From the IMG/VR virus record IMGVR_UViG_2711768010_000017: a DNA stretch of 45,246 nucleotides; one strand, given 5' to 3'. Below, piece by piece: positions 1,668 through 40,769 of this stretch. The notes under the pieces are model-generated. The model was not told the origin of the DNA. It saw nothing but the letters and a program-made list of their open reading frames with translations, and searched no databases. Each line of letters begins with the position of its first letter. Positions within the stretch are counted from its first letter, which is position 1. Source of the DNA: a virus (Duplodnaviria; Heunggongvirae; Uroviricota; Caudoviricetes). The position numbers were made by a program, and so were the translations under genes.

Positions 1668-2765
1668 ATGGCGTACTATAACATAGAGAAACGACTAAAA
1701 TCCGATGGCACACCACGCTATCGCTGTAATGTGATTATCAAAGAAAAAGGTGTTATCACTTACAGGGAAAGCAAAACATTCCCTAAACATGCTCATGCCA
1801 AAACATGGGGCGCACAGAAAGTGATGGAATTAGATCTATATGGCATTCCATCATCAAATGCTGTTGACGGACTTACAGTCCGTGACTTACTACACAAATA
1901 TTTAAATGACCCAAATGCCGGAGGTAAAGCAGGCCGTACTAAAAGATATGTGCTGGAACTGCTTATGGATAGTGACATCTCCGCGATCAAACTATCTGAA
2001 CTGACAGAAAATGACGTAATTGAACATTGCAGGCTAAGAAACAACGCTGGTGCAGGCCCAGCAACAGTCAGCCACGATGTTAGTTATCTTGGCAGTGTTC
2101 TGGATGCGGCAAAACCTGTATACGGAATCAATTACACATCAAACCCGGCGAAAAGCGCTCGTCCATATCTACTTAAACTCGGTTTGATTGGTAAATCAAA
2201 CCGTCGTAATCGTAGACCAGCATCTGATGAACTGAACATGCTCATTGAAGGCCTTCAACAACGATCTACTCATAAATGCTCAAAAATTCCGTTCGTTGAT
2301 ATCCTCAAATTTTCTGTGTGGTCCTGTATGCGAATCGGAGAAGTATGCCGGTTACGATGGGAAGATCTCGACCAGGAACAAAAATCTATACTAGTAAGAG
2401 ACAGGAAAGATCCACGTAAAAAGGAAGGCAACCATATGAAAGTTGCCTTGCTTGGGGAAGCCTGGGATATCGTCCAGCGACAACCCAAAAAATCAGAATT
2501 CATTTTTCCATATAACAGCACTTCTGTTACCGCAGGATTTCAGAGGGTAAGAAGCAAATTAGGTATTAAAGATCTGAGATACCATGATTTGCGTAGAGAA
2601 GGGGCAAGTCGCTTATTTGAGGCTGGTTTTAGTATTGAGGAAGTCGCTCAGGTTACAGGGCATCGTTCATTAAACGTGCTATGGCAGGTATATACCGAAC
2701 TGTATCCGAAATCTTTACATAATCGTTTTGAAGAACTCCAAAGGAGCAGAAATAAGACCTCTTGA
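1668..2765 (+). CDS. int: Tyrosine integrase of the dusA-targeting family
   Basis: 365-aa ORF with ATG preceded by GAGG RBS; C-terminal catalytic region HDLRREGASRLFEAGFSIEEVAQVTGHRSLNVLWQVY with R/H/R/Y-type signature; sits next to dusA 5-prime end. Confidence 0.85.
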   Translation: MAYYNIEKRLKSDGTPRYRCNVIIKEKGVITYRESKTFPKHAHAKTWGAQKVMELDLYGIPSSNAVDGLTVRDLLHKYLNDPNAGGKAGRTKRYVLELLMDSDISAIKLSELTENDVIEHCRLRNNAGAGPATVSHDVSYLGSVLDAAKPVYGINYTSNPAKSARPYLLKLGLIGKSNRRNRRPASDELNMLIEGLQQRSTHKCSKIPFVDILKFSVWSCMRIGEVCRLRWEDLDQEQKSILVRDRKDPRKKEGNHMKVALLGEAWDIVQRQPKKSEFIFPYNSTSVTAGFQRVRSKLGIKDLRYHDLRREGASRLFEAGFSIEEVAQVTGHRSLNVLWQVYTELYPKSLHNRFEELQRSRNKTS

Positions 2766-2767
2766 CA

Positions 2768-2783
2768 CTGTTTATCCATACAG
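2768..2783. promoter_or_regulatory. LexA (SOS) box 1: CTGT-N8-ACAG
   Basis: CTGTTTATCCATACAG directly after a TTGACA -35 hexamer (2762-2767), upstream of the dinI-like gene. Confidence 0.65.
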
Positions 2784-2795
2784 TTAAAAATAATA

Positions 2796-2811
2796 CTGTA
2801 TACAAATACAG
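2796..2811. promoter_or_regulatory. LexA (SOS) box 2: CTGT-N8-ACAG
   Basis: CTGTATACAAATACAG, 15 bp upstream of the dinI-like ATG at 2826; close to the E. coli LexA box consensus. Confidence 0.7.
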
Positions 2812-2825
2812 TGTAGGGGACTTTT

Positions 2826-3074
2826 ATGCGTATTGAAATCTGCATAGCCAAAGAAAAAATGACTAAAATGCCAACCGGTGCTGTGGATGCGTTAAAGGAA
2901 GAATTAACCCGACGCATCAGTAAACGTTATGACGATGTAGAAGTGATCGTAAAAGCCACCAGCAACGATGGCCTTTCTGTTACGCGCACCGCTGATAAAG
3001 ATTCAGCTAAAACTTTTGTTCAGGAGACTCTGAAAGATACCTGGGAGTCTGCTGACGAGTGGTTTGTTCATTAA
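2826..3074 (+). CDS. DinI-like SOS-response protein (prophage copy)
   Basis: 82-aa product [11 protein letters not shown]...[11 protein letters not shown] resembles E. coli DinI in length and conserved C-terminal TWESADxWF motif; preceded by tandem LexA boxes. Confidence 0.85.
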
Positions 3075-3105
3075 GTTCATCATCTCTGGACACCATTCAC
3101 TTGTA

Positions 3106-3135
3106 TTGACTTTAAGATCATTAAATTGTAATAAT
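3106..3135 (+). promoter_or_regulatory. Candidate sigma70 promoter for the membrane-protein/RT operon
   Basis: TTGACT (3106-3111), 18-bp spacer, AATAAT (3130-3135); predicted start near 3142. Confidence 0.35.
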
Positions 3136-3141
3136 TCAAAG

Positions 3142-3280
3142 GGATGGGGCAGGTTTTTCCTCTTGCGCATGCAAGGGCGGCTCTGATAATGAACAGTAAT
3201 ATTTTACTGTTGAGCTTATGCTCACTGATCCTGCCGGGCAGGATGTTCAACGGTTCCAATATATCCTGCCCCTTCCGCTT
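3142..3280 (+). ncRNA. Structured 5-prime leader or candidate RT-associated ncRNA (several stem-loops)
   Basis: GGGGCAGG (3145-3152) complementary to CCTGCCCC (3265-3272); local hairpins cttgc-gcat-gcaag (3162-3175), aacagtaa-tatt-ttactgtt (3192-3211), and perfect palindrome atcctgcc-g-ggcaggat (3228-3244). Confidence 0.25.
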
Positions 3281-3296
3281 TTAAAAAGGATCTTTT

Positions 3297-3848
3297 ATGC
3301 ATGACAATATTTGGTTTACATATAAAGCACGTATCCAAGCGCACCATCGACTAGAATGGCTTGAAAAACACTCTCAATTTATCCTCGTTTGGTATGCTAT
3401 ATTGAGTGCGGTACTTTCAATTGTAACGTTGCGATTTCCAAAGGTTCTAGGAGATAATACAGATGTCGTTGCGGCGATACTTTCAGTGGCTCTACTGGGT
3501 ATTTCTCTGATCGTATCTAACCTAGATTTTCGTGGTCGAGCAATAGCCATGAGAAGGAATTATATTGCACTACAGCGACTCTATTTTGACATTACCACCA
3601 GTCAACAGTTATCTCTTGAACAGAAAGAAAAATATTTTAATTTGCTCAATGAGGTTGAGAATCACCGTGACATAGATGATAAAATTTCAAGGGTAACTCA
3701 AGTTGGACTTAAGACGAGGATCCCCACACAAAAAGAAAAAATAATTGTTATTTTATGGATATTACTTCGAATATTTATTACTGCCGCACTTTATATACTC
3801 CCATTAATATATCTTTGGATTGACTATGACTGCAAGCAGAATTTTTAA
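3297..3848 (+). CDS. Membrane protein with three predicted TM helices; candidate effector partner of the downstream RT
   Basis: 183-aa ORF with AAGGA RBS; hydrophobic segments FILVWYAILSAVLSIVTL, VVAAILSVALLGISLIVSNL and C-terminal IIVILWILLRIFITAALYILPLIYLWI; AT-rich; overlaps RT start by 23 nt. Confidence 0.7.
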   Translation: MHDNIWFTYKARIQAHHRLEWLEKHSQFILVWYAILSAVLSIVTLRFPKVLGDNTDVVAAILSVALLGISLIVSNLDFRGRAIAMRRNYIALQRLYFDITTSQQLSLEQKEKYFNLLNEVENHRDIDDKISRVTQVGLKTRIPTQKEKIIVILWILLRIFITAALYILPLIYLWIDYDCKQNF

Positions 3849-5196
3849 AAAGTCATTCTCGAAAAAAAATCTTCTAAAAGTATACTCTGAAAAAATCAAA
3901 GAATCAGGAGCGATTGGCATAGATCGGATTCGCCCATCAAAACTTGATTTGACAATAAAAAATGAGATCACTTTCATTTTTGAAAAGGTTAATTCTGGCA
4001 ATTACAAATTTACAGCATATAAAGAAAAATTAATATCTAAAGGCGCTAACTCTACACCCAGACAGATTTCCATACCAACTGCTAGGGACAGAATTACTCT
4101 TAGAGCTCTCTGTGAATGCCTTACGGAAATATATCCTAAGTCCAGATTAAAACTACCACATACAGTAATTGACTCATTGAAAGAAGCATTAAACAACAGT
4201 CTATATGCTGAATATGCAAAAATAGATCTTAAAAGTTTCTATCCTTCAATTGAACATAAATTGATAATTAATGCAATAAAAAATAAAATTAGAAAAAAAG
4301 AAATTAGACAGTTAATAACATCATCATTAATCGTGCCTACTGTAAGTGGAACCACAGGAAGCAAAGGTATCCCTAATAATACCAGAGGAGTACCTCAGGG
4401 ATTAGCGATATCAAACATTTTAGCTGAAATATCACTATCTAATTTCGATGATGAAATCAATAAAATGCATGACATATGGTACATGCGATACGTTGATGAC
4501 ATTCTTATTTTAACACCAAAATATCAAGCAACAAAAATAGCTTCTCATATCATTGATAAGCTTCAATCATTAAATTTAAACCCACATCCATTAAATGAAG
4601 AGAACTCAAAATCCAAAGTAGGCAGCTTGGATGAAAGTTTCAACTTTTTGGGCTACCACATAAAAAATCGAGAATTATTGATAAAACATGAGAGCATTCT
4701 TAGATTTGAGTCATCCTTAGCAAAAATTTTTACTGCATATAGACACGCTCTACTACAAGCTAAAAATAAGCGCGATAAAGAACGAGCTGTTGCATATTGT
4801 CAGTGGAAACTAAATCTTAGAATTACGGGATGTGTGTTTGAAGGTAAACGATTGGGATGGGTATCGTACTTCTCACAAATAACGTCAACAGCTCAACTTC
4901 GAGCTGTTAATCATACGATCAATAATCTTATCCGCCGATTCGGCCTTTCATCAGAAATAAAACCAAAGTCTTTGATTAAAACTTTCTATGAACTCCGCAG
5001 GGGTAGAGCGGAGACTTTTAAATACATACCTAACTTTGACAATCTACATATATCTCAGAAACGAGAAATTGTTTCTATGTGGATAGGGAAAGAGAATGAA
5101 AAAAAACTTAGCAATAGTGAAATAGAGAGAAAATTTAAATTTAAAATTGCGAAATCAGTAAAAGAGCTTGAAGAGGACATTTCAGGGATATCATAG
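3826..5196 (+). CDS. Reverse transcriptase (defence-associated type, retron-like or UG/Abi-like; family unassigned)
   Basis: RT motifs in order: GIDRIR, RQISIPTARDRITLRAL, KIDLKSFYPSIEH, GVPQGLAISNILAEI, YMRYVDDILIL (YxDD), FNFLGYHI; about 200-aa C-terminal extension; first ATG at 3826 (track start 3820 is TTG). Confidence 0.85.
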   Translation: MTASRIFKKSFSKKNLLKVYSEKIKESGAIGIDRIRPSKLDLTIKNEITFIFEKVNSGNYKFTAYKEKLISKGANSTPRQISIPTARDRITLRALCECLTEIYPKSRLKLPHTVIDSLKEALNNSLYAEYAKIDLKSFYPSIEHKLIINAIKNKIRKKEIRQLITSSLIVPTVSGTTGSKGIPNNTRGVPQGLAISNILAEISLSNFDDEINKMHDIWYMRYVDDILILTPKYQATKIASHIIDKLQSLNLNPHPLNEENSKSKVGSLDESFNFLGYHIKNRELLIKHESILRFESSLAKIFTAYRHALLQAKNKRDKERAVAYCQWKLNLRITGCVFEGKRLGWVSYFSQITSTAQLRAVNHTINNLIRRFGLSSEIKPKSLIKTFYELRRGRAETFKYIPNFDNLHISQKREIVSMWIGKENEKKLSNSEIERKFKFKIAKSVKELEEDISGIS

Positions 5197-5260
5197 ATAT
5201 GTAATCCATTAAATCCTTTATATATAAAGCAATAAACACACTATTTAAATTCACAAATCA

Positions 5261-5294
5261 GCCGCAGTATCCTGCCATGACAAGTTGCTGCGGC
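5261..5294. terminator. GC-rich hairpin between RT stop and tfa stop (convergent terminator candidate)
   Basis: gccgcag (5261-5267) pairs with ctgcggc (5288-5294); loop contains TATCCTGCC. Confidence 0.3.
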
Positions 5295-5308
5295 ATATCA
5301 CAAAACGA

Positions 5309-5893
5309 TTACTCCATAACAGGGACCGCAGGCCACTCAATATCAGGTGCAGTTGATGTATCAACACGGTTCAGCAATACCCGATACTTTTTCCATGCTT
5401 CCAGCAACGAGATTTCTTCCTCCGTTGCAATTTCCAGATCTGCAGCATCCTGAAGCGGCGCAATATGCTCACTGGCTACCTGCATCAGGTTGTTTTTTGT
5501 TTCTTCCGCCTCCCGGATCCGGAACAGTTTTTCTGCTTCCGTATCCTTCACCCAGGCTGTGCCGTTCCACTTCTGAAACTCCCCTTCCGGGGATAACCAG
5601 GTAACATTTTCCGGTAACGGACCGAGTTCAGAAATAAATAACGCGTCCCCTGACGCTACGTCATAAACCGTTTTACCCCGATGGTCTTCAACGAGATGCC
5701 ACGATGCCTCATCACTGTTGAAAACAGCCACAAAGCCAGCCGGAATATCTGGCGGTGCAATATAGGTACTGTTTGCTGGCAGACCTGTATGAGGCGGAAT
5801 ATATGCGTCACCTTCACCAATAAATTCATTAGTTCCGGTCAGCAGATTATAAATTTTTATGGTCCGTGGTTGTTCACTCATTCTGAATGCCAT
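5309..5893 (-). CDS. tfa: Tail fiber assembly protein
   Basis: 194-aa product with Tfa-like N-terminus [24 protein letters not shown]; immediately downstream of the side tail fiber gene. Confidence 0.85.
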
Positions 5894-8800
5894 TATGCAA
5901 GCCTCACAATATAGTTAAATGCGATGTTTTTGACGGTGTTTTCCGCGTTACCCGCAGCGTTAACGGTGATGGTATGTCCATGTGAACCAATCGCAACGGA
6001 GTGCGTATGAGCACCAATACCGACAGTATGCGCGTGTGCACCTGCAGATGCTGCTGTGCCGGACAGTGAGTGGCTATGATTACCATCTGTACTGGTATTC
6101 GCTAACCACCCCGTAGACATACCTACTGAGCCTTGTACACCCCAGGTATTTTGACCTGAGCTTGTATAACCATATTGATAAGTATCTTTAAAAACACTGG
6201 GGTTAAATCGACGGCCATCTCTATGGCTGTGATTACCAGCTGCATTCGTGCTGCCACTTAAACTATGGGTATGCGCACCAGTGTTATTCGTGGATTTAGT
6301 GCCGTAATCAAACGACGATGTGGTTTTCGTCCCCAAATCCGTACTGGATGCGCTGGCGCTGTGGGTATGCGATTTAATGCCGTCCTGTTCCTGAGACAAT
6401 ACGGCCCGACCACTGGCAGGTTTGCCCTTAATCGTCCAGCCACGCATATCAGGGATCACACCTGACGGATAAACGGCTGCAAGTTTCGGGTAAGCAGATT
6501 TGTCAAAAGTCTGTCCCTGCATCAGGGCATAACCAGACGGAACGGTATCTGATGGCCACGGGATTGGTGCACCGACTGGGTAGCTTTCTGGTGGAAGATT
6601 TTTCGAGGTATAAACTTCTGCCCAGTCTTCCTCAAAACCATAACCGTCTCTTGAAGAACGGTAGAACAGACCACCATTTCTGTAATGCGCCTTCATCTGC
6701 AAGGTCCGGCAACTTCCGACTCCGGTATAGAAGTTAACCAGAATATAGCTGTTGCCAGAGCGGGTGACATTGTAAGCGCCTGATTCGGCATTCCATGGAA
6801 CGCCACCATCCGCATCGGCATATGTATCCGTTGCCCTTCTGGCAAAAGCAGCCACATGCGCGGCGGTTAAAGTAATATCTTTGGAACCATCAAACTCAAC
6901 ACCAGAAACCAGTCTTGGCGTTTGCAGCTTTGTTGCTGTCAATGCGTTACCGTTCAGACTTGCAGACAGTTTGGTTCCAATAACCAGTTCGCCGGTTGCG
7001 TTATCAATAACAAACGGTCTTAATGTATTCCAGCCACCATAAACATCACCTTGATTGGTAAGCAGCAGGTAAGTTTTAGCGCCATCATTACGCCATAATG
7101 CACCATACTCCCCACCTATCATTCGAATCTGATTACCACCACGCGCTACAATTTCGTCTGTGGCAAAAAGTTTTTTGCACGACAAGTTATCGTTAACGAT
7201 TAACGAATGAGACTCATAAAAACCACGCCCACTCTTAAAATCAAGGATAACGTCCGCCGCGATACATTCAGTCGCCGGATTTGTTGCCCCAAACTTATAG
7301 GTCGTATCATTAACAACGAGATCAGCACCAGGTGCGGATATTGACAGGCCATCTTCGAGAAACGCAAAAACAGGGAAAGCAGCGCCATCAACATAGAACA
7401 CAGAGCGCAAATCATCGCCCTTATTACTCATCATTATTGAGTGGATGGCTCGTTCATTGTTTTGATATTGCCAGAACATTCCATAAGCATAACGCCCCCT
7501 GTCAGTCCAGCCACCAGGCATAACAAATCCGTTAAACTCGCAGTTATTCATCGGATCGCCTGCGATTCGCGTTGCCGTGGTGATAATGACCCTTGATGCC
7601 AGTTCGCTTACTGAGCCAGCAGAACGCATAACAACAACAGGGTAATATTTTCCAGATGTTGCACCTGCAGGAGCGTTAACCCGCACATAACGCATACCAC
7701 GCTTATCAGCAAAGTCTGTTTTACTGACCGCGTTAATGTTGTTCAGGAAGCGTCCCTTATCGGGTATATCAGCGCCGTTCTGGTCTTTCTGCAGACGTTT
7801 CTCAGCATTGTCATTGGCTGCTTTTACTGCCTTTGGCGTTGCCGCCAGCGTTTCAGACGTGCTATTAGTCGCACTACTGAGCTGTACTATCCCCTTTTTC
7901 GTCGTGCTCGCATCCTCAAGCGCCACGGCGGATGCAATATCCTCTGCACGTTTTGCCGCTGTCTCGGCGCGCGTTGCCGCGGATTCCGCCGTACTTTTGC
8001 TCTGTGCTGCCGCCGTCGCACTGCCAGCAGCCTCTGTCGCCTTCGTGGATGCTGTCGTGGCGCTGCCCTTCGCTGCGGACGCTTGTCTGGTCGCCTCATC
8101 TTTTGAAGCAGACGCCGATGATGCCGATGACGCCGCCGAACTGGCGGACGATGCGGCAGCCGTTTTTGAGGATTCTGCGCTGGTCTCCGACGCTTTCGCG
8201 TTCGTCTCCGATGTCTTCGCTGCGGAAGCAGACCTCGCTGCTGCACTGGCCTGTTCAGTGGCTTCGCCAGCCTTCGTTGTGGCTGTTGAAGCGGACGATG
8301 CGGCGCTTTCTGCCGATTTTCCGGCGGCGCTAGCACTGGCTGAGGCCTGCCCGGCACTTGTTGACGCTGCACTGGCAGACGACGCAGCCGCTGTTTTTGA
8401 GCCTGCTGCTGCGGAGGCACTCTGTGCTGCTGCCGTTTCAGAGGACTTAGCGTTTGTCTCAGACGTCTTTGCCGCCTTCGCGGAATTTCCTGCCGCCGTT
8501 GCCGAGGAAGCGGCATTACTGGCGCTCGAAGCTGCGCTCGTTTCTGATAATTTTGCCGCCTCTTTTGAAGCCGACGCATCTCTGGCTGAGGTGGCTGCTT
8601 CTGACGCTTTCGTGGTCGCGGTGGATGCAGAAGTGGCAGCTGATTGTTGTGACGCTGCCGCATTCGTTTCTGACGTTTTCGCCGCACCGGCACTGGTGGC
8701 CGCCGCGCTTTTTGAGGACTCTGCAGCGGCAGCACTTTTTGATGCTTCAGTGGCCTTTGCTGATGCCGTTCCTGCGCTGGAAGACGCAGACTGAGCCGAC

Positions 8801-9291
8801 GAAGCGGCCTGTCCGGCTGACGTGCTGGCTGCTCGTGCTGAGCCTGCAGCATCAGTCGCACGGGTTGCCGCCTCACGGGCTGATGTGCTGGCATCGCTGG
8901 CTGATTTCTTCGCGGCTGCCGTGTTCTGTGCCACCGCGGACGCGTTACGCGCCACCTCTTCCACCATCAGTTCAAAGCGGCGCAGTGCCTCAGGACGGGC
9001 ATCATCCTCCGTCATGGCACCGAGAAAATCATTCAGCGTACCGGGTCGGGAATCTTCATACACGGTGATGGTCCCGGCATGTGACGGCGGGAATCCTTCC
9101 ACCAACAGAATAACGCTGTACTGACCGTACTCAACGTCCATGCTGTAACGCCCGGCTTCATCCGGATTTTCTGAGGCCAGCGTGTTCACCACCACCGTGG
9201 TGCTGTTACGTTTTGCTTTCAGCTGGATTGTGCAGTTCTGTACCGGTTTTCCTGTGCCGTCTTTCAGTACACCTGAAATCTTTACTGCCAT
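5893..9291 (-). CDS. stf: Side tail fiber protein with long Ala/Ser/Thr-rich repeat region and His-rich C-terminus
   Basis: N-terminus [26 protein letters not shown] as in lambda Stf (first ATG at 9291; track start 9297 is GTG); HxH repeats GAHTHS/GNHSHS near C-terminus. Confidence 0.9.
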
Positions 9292-9302
9292 ATTCACCCC
9301 AC

Positions 9303-9355: not shown

Positions 9356-10085
9356 TCAGAATTTATAACCGACACCCACGATGAAACCGTCAGTGCGCCA
9401 GTCGCCACTGCCGGAGCCTTCATAAGCAATATCAATGGCCACGGATTCGGTCGGGTTAAACTGCACGCCAGCTCCCCACGCCAGAGACGTGTTGCTGTGG
9501 CGACCGTCATCACTTCCGGTCAGCACATCGTGCGTTTTCCCCTTATTGTCAGTTACGCGGATATAATCCCCGGAAAAAGTCGACACACGGCTGTAAGCCA
9601 CACCCGCCATCGCATACGCGCTGAACCATTCATTCACGCGCACAGACGGCCCCGCCATCACGCTGAACCAGCGGTTACGAACGGAATCTTCATGCCAGCG
9701 GGTATCGCTGTAACGGGTCAGCTGGCGATTCTTGTCTCCTGCATAGCTGAATGACGTCACCANNNNNNNNNNNNNNNNNNNNNNNNNNNNNNNNNNNNNN
9801 NNNNNNNNNNNNNNNNNNNNNNNNNNNNNNNNNNNNNNNNNNNNNNNNNNNNNNNNNNNNNNNNNNNNNNNNNNNNNNNNNNNNNNNNNNNNNCCCCAGT
9901 GTGTCCGTAAACTCATAACGGTATTTCACGTTAATCCCGTTCAGATCATCACTGCCGGGAACGTTGGTCCGGGCATGAAGATACCCCGCGCTCAGCGTGG
10001 ACTGATGTTCAGACGCCCATGCAGGCGCACCGGATACGGCCAGACAAATGGCTGCGGACAAAATTGCTGCACAAACTTTACGCAT
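9356..10085 (-). CDS. lom: Lom/Ail/PagC-family outer membrane protein, interrupted by an assembly gap (N run 9763-9893)
   Basis: N-terminal signal peptide MRKVCAAILSAAICLAVSGAPAWA and C-terminal beta-barrel end GFIVGVGYKF; position between J and stf as in lambda. Confidence 0.7.
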
Positions 10086-30060: not shown

Positions 30061-30484
30061 TCAGTGACTTAAGGTTGTGATTCCGGAGGAGTCTTCAGAG
30101 AACCAGTAATTCTTCCTGGTAGCTTTCCTTTGTAGGTTATCCAAACATTCTGCGNNNNNNNNNNNNNNNNNNNNNNNNNNNNNNNNNNNNNNNNNNNNNN
30201 NNNNNNNNNNNNNNNNNNNNNNNNNNNNNNNNNNNNNNNNNNNNNNNNNNNNNNNNNNNNNNNNNNNNNNNNNNNNNNNNNNNNNNNNNNNNNNNNNNNN
30301 NNNNNNNNNNNNNNNNNNNNNNNNNNNNNNNNNNNNNNNNNNNNNNNNNNNNNNNNNNNNNNNNNNNNNNNNNNNNNNNNNNNNNNNNNNNNNNNNNNNN
30401 NNNNNNNNNNNNAAACCAGTACCCGGCACTACCTGCTGAGGTGCCATAGGCGACACCCGTTGTTAACTTATCCATGGATTTCAT
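30061..30484 (-). CDS. Holin, split by assembly gap (N run 30155-30412); dual-start MKSM motif
   Basis: [25 protein letters not shown]-terminus with GAGGTGG RBS; only the 24-codon N-terminal piece and a C-terminal piece are resolved. Confidence 0.5.
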
Positions 30485-30551: not shown

Positions 30552-31604
30552 TTATTTCCCCACCAGCTCGTTTATCTCTTTCACTGTCTGATTAAACCGC
30601 TCTGACTCAAGCTCAACACCTAAGGCCCGACGCCCCAGCGCCATTGCTGCTTTTATTGTGGAACCGGATCCCATAAAAAAATCAGCAACCAGATCACCTG
30701 GTCGACTACTGGCATTGATTATTTGCCTGAGCATATCCGCCGGTTTCTCACACGGATGTTTCCCCGGGTAGAACTGAACGGGTTTATGCATCCAGACATC
30801 GGTATAAGGCACGGAGACTGATACGGAGAAATAGCGCCGGAGAGATTTAAACTCATCCAGCAATTCAGAATATTTACGATTCAGTGAATCATAAGATGCC
30901 ACCAGCTGGTGGTGTGGTTGTTCCAGTTGTTGTTCCTGAAACTTCTCTGCCGCTATACGGGAAAACAGTGCCTGTAACTTCCGATAGTCAGCCTCATTCG
31001 GCAACTGCCACTGACTGGCACCAAACCAGTGGGAAACCATATTTTTCTTACCTGTGGCTTCGGCAATTTGTTTTGCCGTTATACCCAGTTCGGCACGAGC
31101 ATCCCTGAAATACGATATCAGCGGTGCCATTATGTGCTGTTTGAGTTCCCTTTCTTTTGCCGCATAGCCGTCACTTTTGCCGCGATATGGCCCCTGGTAA
31201 TGTTCAGCAAACAGAACGCGCTCTGTGGCAGGAAAATATGCGCGCAGACTTTCTTTATTACACCCATTCCAACGTCCGGACGGCTTCGCCCAGATGATAT
31301 GGTTAAGCACGTTGAAACGTTCACGCATCATGATCTCAATATCAGATGCCAGGCGATGCCCACAGAACAGGTAAAGGCTTCCGGCAGGTTTCAACACCCG
31401 CCAGAACTGGGCCAGACAGTGGTCCAGCCACTTAAGGTAATCTTCGTCCCCTTTCCACTGATTGTCCCAACCGTTGGGTTTCACCTTGAAGTAAGGCGGA
31501 TCGGTAACAATCAGGTCAATGGAATCATCAGGCAGGGACTGAATAAAATGCAGGCAATCAGCGTTGATTAAATCAACACTGTTTATTTTTACAGTATTTT
31601 TCAT
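30552..31604 (-). CDS. DNA methyltransferase (N6-adenine/N4-cytosine, beta-class motif order)
   Basis: DLIVTDPPY near the N-terminus and FFMGSGST (FxGxG) near the C-terminus. Confidence 0.85.
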
Positions 31605-40094: not shown

Positions 40095-40769
40095 ATGAAA
40101 ACAGTCCATGACATCCGGCGGTCTAACGCCAGAAAACTGAGAGATGGTGTTGGCGGGAATTCTTCCTTTGCCACCATGATTGATCGCGAGCCAACCCAGA
40201 CCAGCAGGTTTATGGGAGATGGTGCAACTAAAAATATCGGTGACAGCATGGCACGGCACATCGAAAAATGTTTCGACCTGCCTGTCGGATGGCTTGATCA
40301 AGAACACCAGACAACGAACATCACAAAAAAACCTGACGTTTCAATCACTAACAAACAAATAACGTTAGTCCCTGTCATATCATGGGTACAGGCCGGAGCA
40401 TGGAAAGAAGTTGGCTATTCTGAGGTTGATTTGAGCACAGCAGAAACTTATCCCTGCCCTGTACCCTGTGGCGAAATGACTTATATCTTGCGGGTGATTG
40501 GTGATTCAATGATTGATGAGTACCGCCCGGGAGACATGATTTTTGTTGATCCTGAAGTCCCTGCCTGCCACGGTGACGACGTTATTGCATTGATGCACGA
40601 TACAGGCGAAACCACCTTCAAGCGGTTGATAGAAGATGGAACACAGCGTTATCTCAAAGCATTAAACCCAAACTGGCCTGAGCCTTACATTAAGATTAAC
40701 GGTAATTGCTCTATAATTGGTACAGTGATTTTCTCAGGAAAACCAAGAAGATACATAATAAAGGCCTAA
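40095..40769 (+). CDS. CI-type repressor (HTH plus S24 LexA-like autopeptidase domain)
   Basis: 224 aa; N-terminal HTH-like region ending LPVGWLD, C-terminal S24 motifs (VIGDSMIDEY, GDMIFVDP). Confidence 0.85.
   Translation: MKTVHDIRRSNARKLRDGVGGNSSFATMIDREPTQTSRFMGDGATKNIGDSMARHIEKCFDLPVGWLDQEHQTTNITKKPDVSITNKQITLVPVISWVQAGAWKEVGYSEVDLSTAETYPCPVPCGEMTYILRVIGDSMIDEYRPGDMIFVDPEVPACHGDDVIALMHDTGETTFKRLIEDGTQRYLKALNPNWPEPYIKINGNCSIIGTVIFSGKPRRYIIKA

Follow-up and report, generated by a model that had tools for sequence, protein, structure and literature searches.

Background

Homologues of dinI are carried by the Gifsy prophages, in which a LexA box is required for their response to mitomycin C (PMC3121763), nalidixic acid induces them 4.6- to 23-fold (PMC8072944), and a one-base change in the -10 element of the dinI promoter abolishes Gifsy-1 production (PMC5322425). 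Non-polar deletions of the homologues in Gifsy-1 and Gifsy-3 were reported, with data not shown there, not to alter induction significantly; the phages so tested have non-cleavable repressors (PMC3121763). For phage 186, the sequence record annotates the p95 promoter as dependent on SOS, assigns it a putative LexA site, gives tum expression as repressed by LexA, and also lists truncated, DinI-like products of Tum said to 'modulate SOS induction'. DinI can inhibit coprotease activity, the cleavage of UmuD and of LexA being inhibited differentially, and more than one LexA box per promoter makes for tighter repression and later induction. Structural work has identified L13, L21, E24, E69, W71, D76, W77 and F78 as the residues of DinI that contact RecA, and has described how RecA filaments become longer and more stable under the action of DinI (PMC9926225).

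The subject of this report is a dinI-like gene near the start of a 45,246-nucleotide stretch of caudoviral DNA (IMG/VR record IMGVR_UViG_2711768010_000017), hereafter the window. Literature searches on the E. coli cassette to which this gene belongs yielded only annotations, one speculation, namely that a DinI copy tunes the induction threshold of Stx2a phages (PMC8456039), and one array study, in which the dinI-like gene c0943 fell along with sulA, dinI, umuD and recN (PMC2817434).

Results and discussion

Architecture of the cassette promoter

The gene and its promoter form a self-contained cassette of 316 bp on the forward strand (2759-3074), with the -35 hexamer at one end and the stop codon at the other. 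Homology between the mobile copies begins at about 2759, about 3 nt 5' of the -35 hexamer TTGACA (2762-2767), which contains the stop codon of the integrase gene (TGA, 2763-2765) and directly abuts the first of two predicted LexA boxes. Box 1, CACTGTTTATCCATACAGTT (2766-2785, core 2768-2783), occupies the entire spacer between this hexamer and the probable -10 hexamer AAAAAT (2786-2791), a sequence-based assignment; a promoter scan paired the two hexamers across an 18-nt spacer with 10/12 matches, and diverged relatives have TAAAAT or AAATAT aligned with the -10. Box 2, TACTGTATACAAATACAGTG (2794-2813, core 2796-2811), lies 2 nt past the -10 and spans the expected transcription start, placed by sequence at about 2797-2800, together with the early 5' UTR. 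A Shine-Dalgarno element, AGGGGA (2815-2820), is situated 5 nt 5' of the ATG at 2826. The original prediction of two CTGT-N8-ACAG boxes between TTGACA and the ATG of a dinI-like gene was recovered by motif search at the same coordinates. By their position, the operators overlap the predicted promoter and start site in such a way that bound LexA would exclude RNA polymerase. A Rfam scan of 2500-5400 returned nothing related to the cassette, the only signals being a sub-threshold partial match to IS009 and a chance miRNA hit.

The CTGT-N8-ACAG motif occurs four times in the window against an expectation of 0.56, a count reached in none of 100 shuffles. When compared to the 20-mer consensus TACTGTATATATATACAGTA, box 1 agrees at 15 and box 2 at 17 of the 20 positions. 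We further scored both with a home-built measure resembling the heterology index, derived from a set of 20 operators of E. coli, which is approximate and whose values are only relative. On this scale box 2 (2.95) adjoins sulA and box 1 (5.09) falls between uvrA and recN2, which on this approximate index places both within the range of proven operators; sites scoring below 6 number only three in the window and were not encountered in 40 shuffles.

Conservation among relatives

Our first search of viral contigs with the protein retrieved 80 loci, all with 99-100% identity, and the diverged relatives were obtained by re-querying with diverged homologues. A search of genome contigs with the protein returned only four loci, all near-identical. 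Among 59 distinct cassettes, defined by upstream region and protein, 44 display two LexA-like boxes, 13 a single box and two none. The mean minority count is 2.5 in the CTG...CAG arms versus 8.2 inside the boxes and 9.8 between them. The arrangement TTGACA-box-TTAAA(A/T)AT-box is retained in relatives with only 56-72% protein identity (L164, L173-L177), in which the box sequences differ from those in the window and are still consensus-like. The boxes are spaced 28 bp apart here and between 24 and 29 bp apart in relatives, a variation that argues against cooperativity specific to one face of the helix. In the lineages of the Stx phages and BP-4795, box 1 has decayed, with CTGG in one arm or CAAC replacing ACAG; hence, the tandem arrangement is not essential. 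This loss could be taken to mean that the boxes are chance matches or functionless relics, a reading that we find hardly credible, as the shuffles never gave two such strong sites 28 bp apart, conservation of the arms contrasts with variation at the positions next to them, the architecture has outlasted divergence of the box sequences themselves, and the boxes are placed exactly with respect to the -35, the -10 and the predicted start site. Taken together, these observations support the presence of two strong predicted LexA operators within a sigma-70 promoter.

The DinI-like protein and the prophage repressor

The ORF at 2826-3074 (forward strand) codes for a protein of 82 residues that matches the Pfam DinI family PF06183 with 70.9 bits, where the cut-off is 24.2 (E 1e-19), shares 46% identity with E. 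coli DinI (BLASTP E 2e-21) and matches the DinI structures 1GHH and 7YWA in the PDB (E 4e-13). Alignment to DinI indicates that, of the residues contacting RecA, L21, E24, W71, W77 and F78 are identical and the remaining three are conservatively substituted (L13M, E69D and D76E). These comparisons support the protein as a genuine member of the DinI family with its RecA-contact residues retained, in agreement with the family originally assigned to the gene. It scores only 73 bits against the cut-off of 111 of the NCBIfam DinI equivalog model NF007893, and is therefore a paralogue, with an activity that could differ from that of DinI, rather than an equivalog of host dinI; RefSeq names it 'DinI-like family protein'.

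The window also codes for a cI repressor (40095-40769, forward strand), for which an S24 autopeptidase domain had been foreseen. We detected the Peptidase_S24 domain along with a lambda-like QAG cleavage motif, the serine in GDSM and the lysine in TFKRL, which by sequence make this a lambda-type self-cleaving repressor. We propose that cI is the competitor of the DinI-like protein for the groove in activated RecA filaments (RecA*).

The presence of a cleavable repressor bears on whether the cassette could be an antirepressor module under LexA control, like Tum or Gifsy GfoA, whose product would inactivate the phage repressor by binding it. Such a function is suggested by the alignment of the window protein to residues 70-141 of Tum (30% identity), by phrog_189, which covers both proteins, and by the Gifsy dinI homologue, which opens a LexA-controlled antirepressor operon (PMC3121763). 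However, the 82-residue protein consists of the DinI domain only, without the N-terminal half of Tum, and in PSP3 antirepressor activity resides in a separate, non-DinI gene (PMC3121763). Moreover, no gfoA- or irsA-like ORF is found 3' of the gene, the homology of the cassette stopping at its stop codon, and a phage with a cleavable S24 repressor does not need an antirepressor. We consider an antirepressor role very improbable and reject it on account of the alignment confined to Tum 70-141, the missing gfoA/irsA ORF and the cleavable cI.

A proposed late brake on RecA-dependent cleavage

Since LexA control has been proven for Gifsy P(dinI-gfoA) and is annotated for 186 p95, we infer that LexA likewise represses the cassette promoter, which is probably DNA-damage-inducible. 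The explanation that best accounts for the whole, and which we hold to be quite likely, is that of an SOS-inducible prophage moron that is blocked by LexA and encodes a RecA-binding DinI paralogue. In the uninduced lysogen, two LexA dimers would sit on the near-consensus sigma-70 promoter TTGACA-18-AAAAAT, one in the spacer between -35 and -10 and the other across the start site. With both dimers bound, transcription of the dinI-like gene would stay shut until DNA damage strongly depletes LexA, and two strong operators should confer tighter repression and later induction than host dinI has. The DinI-like protein would then bind in the activated RecA filament's groove, as does host DinI, and would occupy a site on RecA* that is also needed by cI and UmuD; the cryo-EM study of Gao et al. 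makes such competition between DinI and cI mechanistically reasonable. The outcome would be a late-SOS brake on the cleavage of slow substrates, under which cI-type prophages would have a higher or delayed induction threshold and the processing of UmuD would be limited. It is plausible that a phage copy of DinI tunes the induction threshold in one direction or the other. The sign of the effect is ambiguous because DinI both stabilises filaments and can inhibit coprotease activity, and the braking direction is thus offered tentatively, at slightly less than even confidence.

The opposite direction would make the DinI-like protein a commitment device that promotes induction: by stabilising RecA* and opposing RecX it would prolong the SOS signal, such that in severe damage the cleavage of cI runs to completion. 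The lengthening and stabilisation of filaments by DinI (PMC9926225) speaks for this, and strong tandem operators, which would confine expression to severe damage, fit commitment as well. Nevertheless, as DinI lies in the very parts of the groove required by cI, high levels of it should compete with cI, and the Gifsy dinI deletions were without effect on induction; we deem a promoting role rather unlikely.

The lack of effect of those deletions also favours a moron that benefits the host, plays no part in the phage's own switch and is kept since its lysogens are fitter, the extra dosage of DinI restraining the processing of UmuD, mutagenesis under SOS or the activity of RecA. The genomic distribution of the cassette has a bearing on this. 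Of 5,426 complete genomes of E. coli, 1,810 contain it, with up to seven copies per genome, and it is also present in many lambdoid and Stx phages. In many unrelated prophages with various integration sites it occupies the moron region, which has int/att on one side and the tail fibres on the other. Its autonomy, its copy number and its recurrence in this region favour a benefit to the host. Against it, the host already possesses dinI, and some prophages have frameshifted or truncated copies of the cassette, so selection is not uniform. We judge a purely host-directed role to be on the unlikely side.

Linkage to a DRT10 defence system

Downstream (3') of the cassette lies a known defence system, DRT10, comprising an ncRNA, a SLATT protein and a reverse transcriptase of the UG17 type (PADLOC: RT_UG17, E 1e-158; RTasSLATT, E 1.5e-56). 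The spacer upstream of SLATT is predicted to fold into a long stem with four hairpins (z -3.1), compensatory changes in this fold are seen in a diverged locus (L274), and the ncRNA fits the published description (PMC12632851).

This arrangement raises the question of whether the main job of the cassette promoter is SOS-responsive read-through into DRT10. In four of the four genomic contexts inspected, DRT10 of this subtype follows on the same strand after a spacer of 222 bp from the stop codon of the dinI-like gene, and the block is present in 188 genomes. A scan for intrinsic terminators in 3074-3297 was negative, while the DRT10-free cassette of mEp460 has a hairpin and T-run, recognised by eye, about 70 nt past its stop codon; the negative scan is itself weak, since it missed the mEp460 element. 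Against read-through, the spacer has a promoter of its own (TTGACT-18-AATAAT, 3106-3135), which is kept in L274, a 68%-identical DRT10 locus without an upstream dinI. Further, at some loci the dinI in front of DRT10 is truncated, frameshifted or replaced, the DRT10 papers make no mention of SOS control, and the DRT10 block is missing from about 90% of cassette-bearing genomes (1,810 versus 188 genomes). Read-through as the main job of the promoter is accordingly improbable, and obligatory coupling we reject in view of L274, which has no upstream dinI, and of the loci elsewhere with a broken or replaced one.

Quite improbable, too, is the related proposal that the dinI-like promoter and DRT10 form a functional unit, in which SOS transcripts would run through the ncRNA, SLATT and reverse transcriptase genes and the DinI paralogue would modulate RecA*. 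Were it true, DNA damage or prophage induction would raise reverse-transcriptase defence by DRT10, and modulation of RecA* would be relevant, DRT10 activity depending on single-stranded DNA metabolism (SbcB).

Conclusions

What we report is chiefly an operator annotation for a very common cassette, of a type expected for SOS-regulated prophage genes. Its interest lies in that induction thresholds of prophages control the release of toxin phages, Stx phages included, as well as what becomes of lysogens exposed to DNA-damaging antibiotics. Carried by one in three sequenced E. coli, and often more than once, a DinI paralogue could shift the availability of RecA* for cI, LexA and UmuD. If expressed only at deep depletion of LexA, it could affect induction hierarchies in polylysogens, and those Stx-phage lineages that lack the first operator may express the gene earlier.

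The cassette belongs to a known kind, from whose described members it differs by its tandem operators and by having no antirepressor partner. As with P(dinI-gfoA) of Gifsy-1, -2 and -3 (PMC3121763), a prophage-borne DinI homologue (44% identity) is encoded directly 3' of a sigma-70 promoter with a consensus LexA box near the ATG. In the Gifsy type, however, a single box stands 18-19 nt from the ATG, with terminators upstream, whereas here there are two boxes; the Gifsy gene, located in the nin region between Q and the genes for replication, heads an operon with the antirepressor gene gfoA/gftA and irsA, whereas the present one stands alone in a cassette at the end with int and the tail fibres; and the Gifsy repressors are non-cleavable, unlike the cI encoded here. 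The p95-tum unit of 186, a P2-like phage with a non-cleavable CI, likewise has an annotated LexA-repressed promoter that drives a protein with a DinI-like domain; but its Tum protein, of 146 residues, includes at the N-terminus an antirepressor half that the window protein lacks, and p95 has, in place of two LexA boxes, just one, which overlaps the -10. Host dinI of E. coli (PDB 1GHH/7YWA) shares family, length and an upstream LexA-type operator with the gene in the window, but has one operator as against two on a mobile 316-bp cassette, and on our approximate index box 2 is stronger than the host dinI box (2.95 vs 4.57). Finally, the use of several LexA boxes in one promoter recalls lexA, recN and the colicin genes; yet the colicin boxes overlap and the lexA boxes are phased two turns apart, whereas those of the cassette do neither, their positions following the geometry of the promoter.

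Tandem LexA-type operators upstream of the dinI-like gene

The promoter region reads tcTTGACA followed, in order, by CTGTTTATCCATACAG, TTAAAAATAATA, CTGTATACAAATACAG and TGTAGGGGACTTTTATG. A motif search recovered both CTGT-N8-ACAG boxes of the original prediction, at 2768-2783 (box 1) and 2796-2811 (box 2), and the -35 hexamer it had placed upstream of them, TTGACA, lies at 2762-2767. In a promoter scan this hexamer pairs with AAAAAT (2786-2791; 10/12 matches) across an 18-nt spacer that is filled exactly by box 1, while box 2 starts 2 nt 3' of the -10 element, overlying the predicted transcription start, and is followed by AGGGGA (2815-2820), which would serve the ATG at 2826 well as a ribosome-binding site. 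The 45-kb window holds four CTGT-N8-ACAG matches against 0.56 expected, a number reached in none of 100 shuffles. On a heterology-type index, in which lower scores denote stronger sites and which is approximate and built from 20 E. coli operators, box 2 scores 2.95, adjoining sulA, and box 1 scores 5.09, close to uvrA and recN2. Scores below 6 are confined to three sites in the window (box 1, box 2 and 31577), and none arose in 40 shuffles.

The third of these sites (31577-31596, - strand, TACTGTAAAAATAAACAGTG; approximate index 5.3, unmatched in the shuffles) lies downstream of the Q antiterminator gene, within codons 3-9 of an ORF (30552-31604, -) for a phage N6/N4 DNA methylase. It may be coincidental, or it may serve LexA as an operator or roadblock for the methylase.

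Using diverged homologues as queries, we collected 59 distinct cassettes of the 81-82-aa type, comprising promoter and dinI-like gene; two LexA-like sites are present in 44 of these and one in 13, and 2 lack any. Aligning 48 distinct promoters gave a mean minority count of 2.5 at the 16 arm positions (CTGT/ACAG), as against 8.2 in the box interiors and 9.8 at other promoter/UTR positions. In relatives with 56-72% protein identity (loci L164 and L173-L177) the order TTGACA-box-TTAAA(A/T)AT-box-SD is preserved, with boxes that are changed in sequence yet consensus-like, e.g. CACTGTATAAATAACCAGTT, as predicted by selection for LexA binding at both positions. The shuffles and this conservation pattern rule out a chance origin; the boxes were correctly observed and are non-random. 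Their centre-to-centre spacing is mostly 28 bp (range 24-29 bp in the 59 cassettes), and their positions seem to be set by promoter geometry rather than helical phasing between dimers. Sequence and comparison point to a strong promoter that LexA-type operators would occlude at two places, and the proposal that LexA controls the dinI-like gene is very likely right.

Box 1 has been lost in the Stx-phage and BP-4795 lineages (CTGT to CTGG, or ACAG to CAAC), where box 2 is weaker. Such decay was seen at L091, L099, L105-L106, L112-L114 and L191 (Stx, BP-4795 and related loci), one variant being without a recognisable box. In toxin phages of this type, a lower SOS level than in the mEp460 type may suffice for expression of the DinI-like gene. 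A second, Gifsy-type class codes for 77 aa in the nin region, followed by an antirepressor gene and irsA; each of the six examples examined has only one box, 15-19 nt away from the ATG.

The DinI-like protein and its prophage

The dinI-like assignment was borne out by a Pfam DinI match (E 1e-19) to the 82-aa product of the ORF at 2826-3074, which also matches phrog_189 ('RecA filament binding protein DinI') and the solved DinI structures 1GHH and 7YWA (E 4e-13). Its identity is 46% to E. coli DinI and 44% to the Gifsy-1 homologue. Its score against the NCBIfam host-DinI equivalog, 73 bits, is below the cut-off of 111, which fits its RefSeq name 'DinI-like family protein'. In DinI, L13, L21, W71, W77 and F78 form a pocket for RecA F203, and E24, E69 and D76 face RecA K232/R243/K245 (Gao et al. 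2023, PMC9926225). In the alignment to the DinI structures, five of these residues are identical and three conservatively replaced (L13M, E69D, D76E); by sequence and comparison, the protein is a DinI paralogue whose RecA-binding surface is intact.

The window represents a lambdoid E. coli prophage that resembles mEp460 and is inserted at dusA (542-1579, -). The dusA-type tyrosine integrase gene (1668-2765, +) overlaps the dinI-like cassette (2759-3074, +): its TGA (2763-2765) sits within the -35 hexamer, so that the mobile cassette provides the integrase stop codon. No terminator was found between the two genes, and int transcripts would therefore run into the predicted LexA-bound operators. 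The S24 repressor invoked in the original prediction is likewise present: the ORF at 40095-40769 contains a Peptidase_S24 domain. Its product aligns with the C-terminal domain of lambda cI and retains the cleavage motif VQAGAW, the serine in GDSM and the lysine in TFKRL. The index scan found no strong LexA-like site in the immunity region, which fits induction via cI self-cleavage.

Runs of N (masked or undetermined bases) at 9763-9893, 15135 and 30155-30412 break the tail and lysis regions, making ORF calls across them unreliable. The side tail fibre gene (5893-9297, -) adjoins a tail fibre assembly gene (5309-5893, -), whose 3' end bears a partial match to Rfam IS009 (5352-5400, -; model positions 151-199; 41.8 bits, E 1e-7), well under the gathering score of 117.

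A modular cassette and its DRT10 neighbour

Megablast with 2600-3300 as the query matched the cassette in 1,810 of 5,426 complete E. coli genomes, with as many as seven places in a single genome. In prophages other than the mEp460 type it spans query positions 158-163 to 475 (window 2757-2762 to 3074), starting at the -35 hexamer and ending with the stop codon. The limits are identical in phages such as cdtI, 2H10, CP-1639 and many Stx1/Stx2 phages, and the neighbours vary on both sides (among them integrase, att sites, nleC, autotransporter and tail fibre genes). The cassette is thus modular and very common. The mEp460 layout, the commonest, has a GC-rich hairpin and T-run about 70 nt past the stop codon; the mEp460 record, as deposited, marks the promoter but no LexA boxes. 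Among the predicted viral contigs of IMG/VR, many (L010, L012, L026 and others) start precisely at the dinI-like ATG or at the -35, 60-61 nt further upstream. Boundary callers for prophages tend to cut at the cassette, and the promoter and operators are lost from the predicted prophage.

Directly past the dinI-like stop codon lies a DRT10 defence system (3075-5196, +; PADLOC and literature), comprising a 222-bp spacer (3075-3296), a SLATT gene (SLATT_5; 3297-3848, +) and a UG17 reverse transcriptase gene (3820-5196, +). Within the spacer lie a promoter of its own (TTGACT-18-AATAAT, 3106-3135; promoter scan) and a structured ncRNA at about 3141-3280, in which a long outer stem, GGGGCAGG/CCTGCCCC, bears four hairpins (z -3.1), a fold agreeing with the published DRT10 ncRNA (PMC12632851). 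The structure is retained at L274, a locus that is 68% identical but has no dinI upstream, and at least three of its hairpins show compensatory changes. This DRT10 subtype occurs in 188 E. coli genomes, and in all four contexts inspected it directly follows the dinI-like stop codon, at times that of a truncated or frameshifted copy. As a terminator scan found none between 3074 and 3297, read-through from the SOS promoter is possible, though not required.

Functional implications and relation to known systems

Going by the homologues and general knowledge of the SOS response, the dinI-like gene would be off in the lysogen. Having two operators, one of which scores as stronger on the approximate index than the host dinI box, it would need deeper LexA depletion than host dinI and would then rise sharply. 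The resulting late-SOS burst of DinI-like protein would compete with slow substrates, e.g. cI and UmuD. We favour such a brake or threshold function in prophage induction as plausible; it is the idea of the original prediction and is not new, having also been voiced in PMC8456039. DinI also stabilises filaments, and it is possible that the protein promotes induction instead. Counting against a brake, Gifsy dinI deletions showed no induction phenotype (Lemire et al. 2011, PMC3121763). The Gifsy phages, however, do not rely on repressor cleavage.

LexA control of prophage DinI homologues is of a known kind, shown for Gifsy and annotated for 186. The Gifsy homologues have a LexA box upstream, and when this region is replaced the response to mitomycin C disappears. 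The LexA-controlled operon begins with dinI and has the antirepressor as its second gene (Lemire et al. 2011, PMC3121763). Nalidixic acid induces them 4.6- to 23-fold (Mérida-Floriano et al. 2021, PMC8072944), and a -10 SNP in the dinI promoter silences Gifsy-1 (Owen et al. 2017, PMC5322425). According to the annotation of its record, phage 186 has an SOS-dependent promoter, p95, with a putative LexA site, LexA-repressed tum expression, and truncated DinI-like products that 'modulate SOS induction'; the C-terminal half of Tum is DinI-like. An antirepressor role for the 82-aa protein is unlikely: it lacks the Tum N-terminal half, no gfoA- or irsA-like genes follow its gene, and the prophage has a cleavable repressor. 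Compared with these systems, the cassette stands alone, has tandem operators and resides in phages with a cleavable cI. It adds to the LexA-controlled prophage dinI genes a further member, which is very widespread and whose promoter is a tandem-operator variant.
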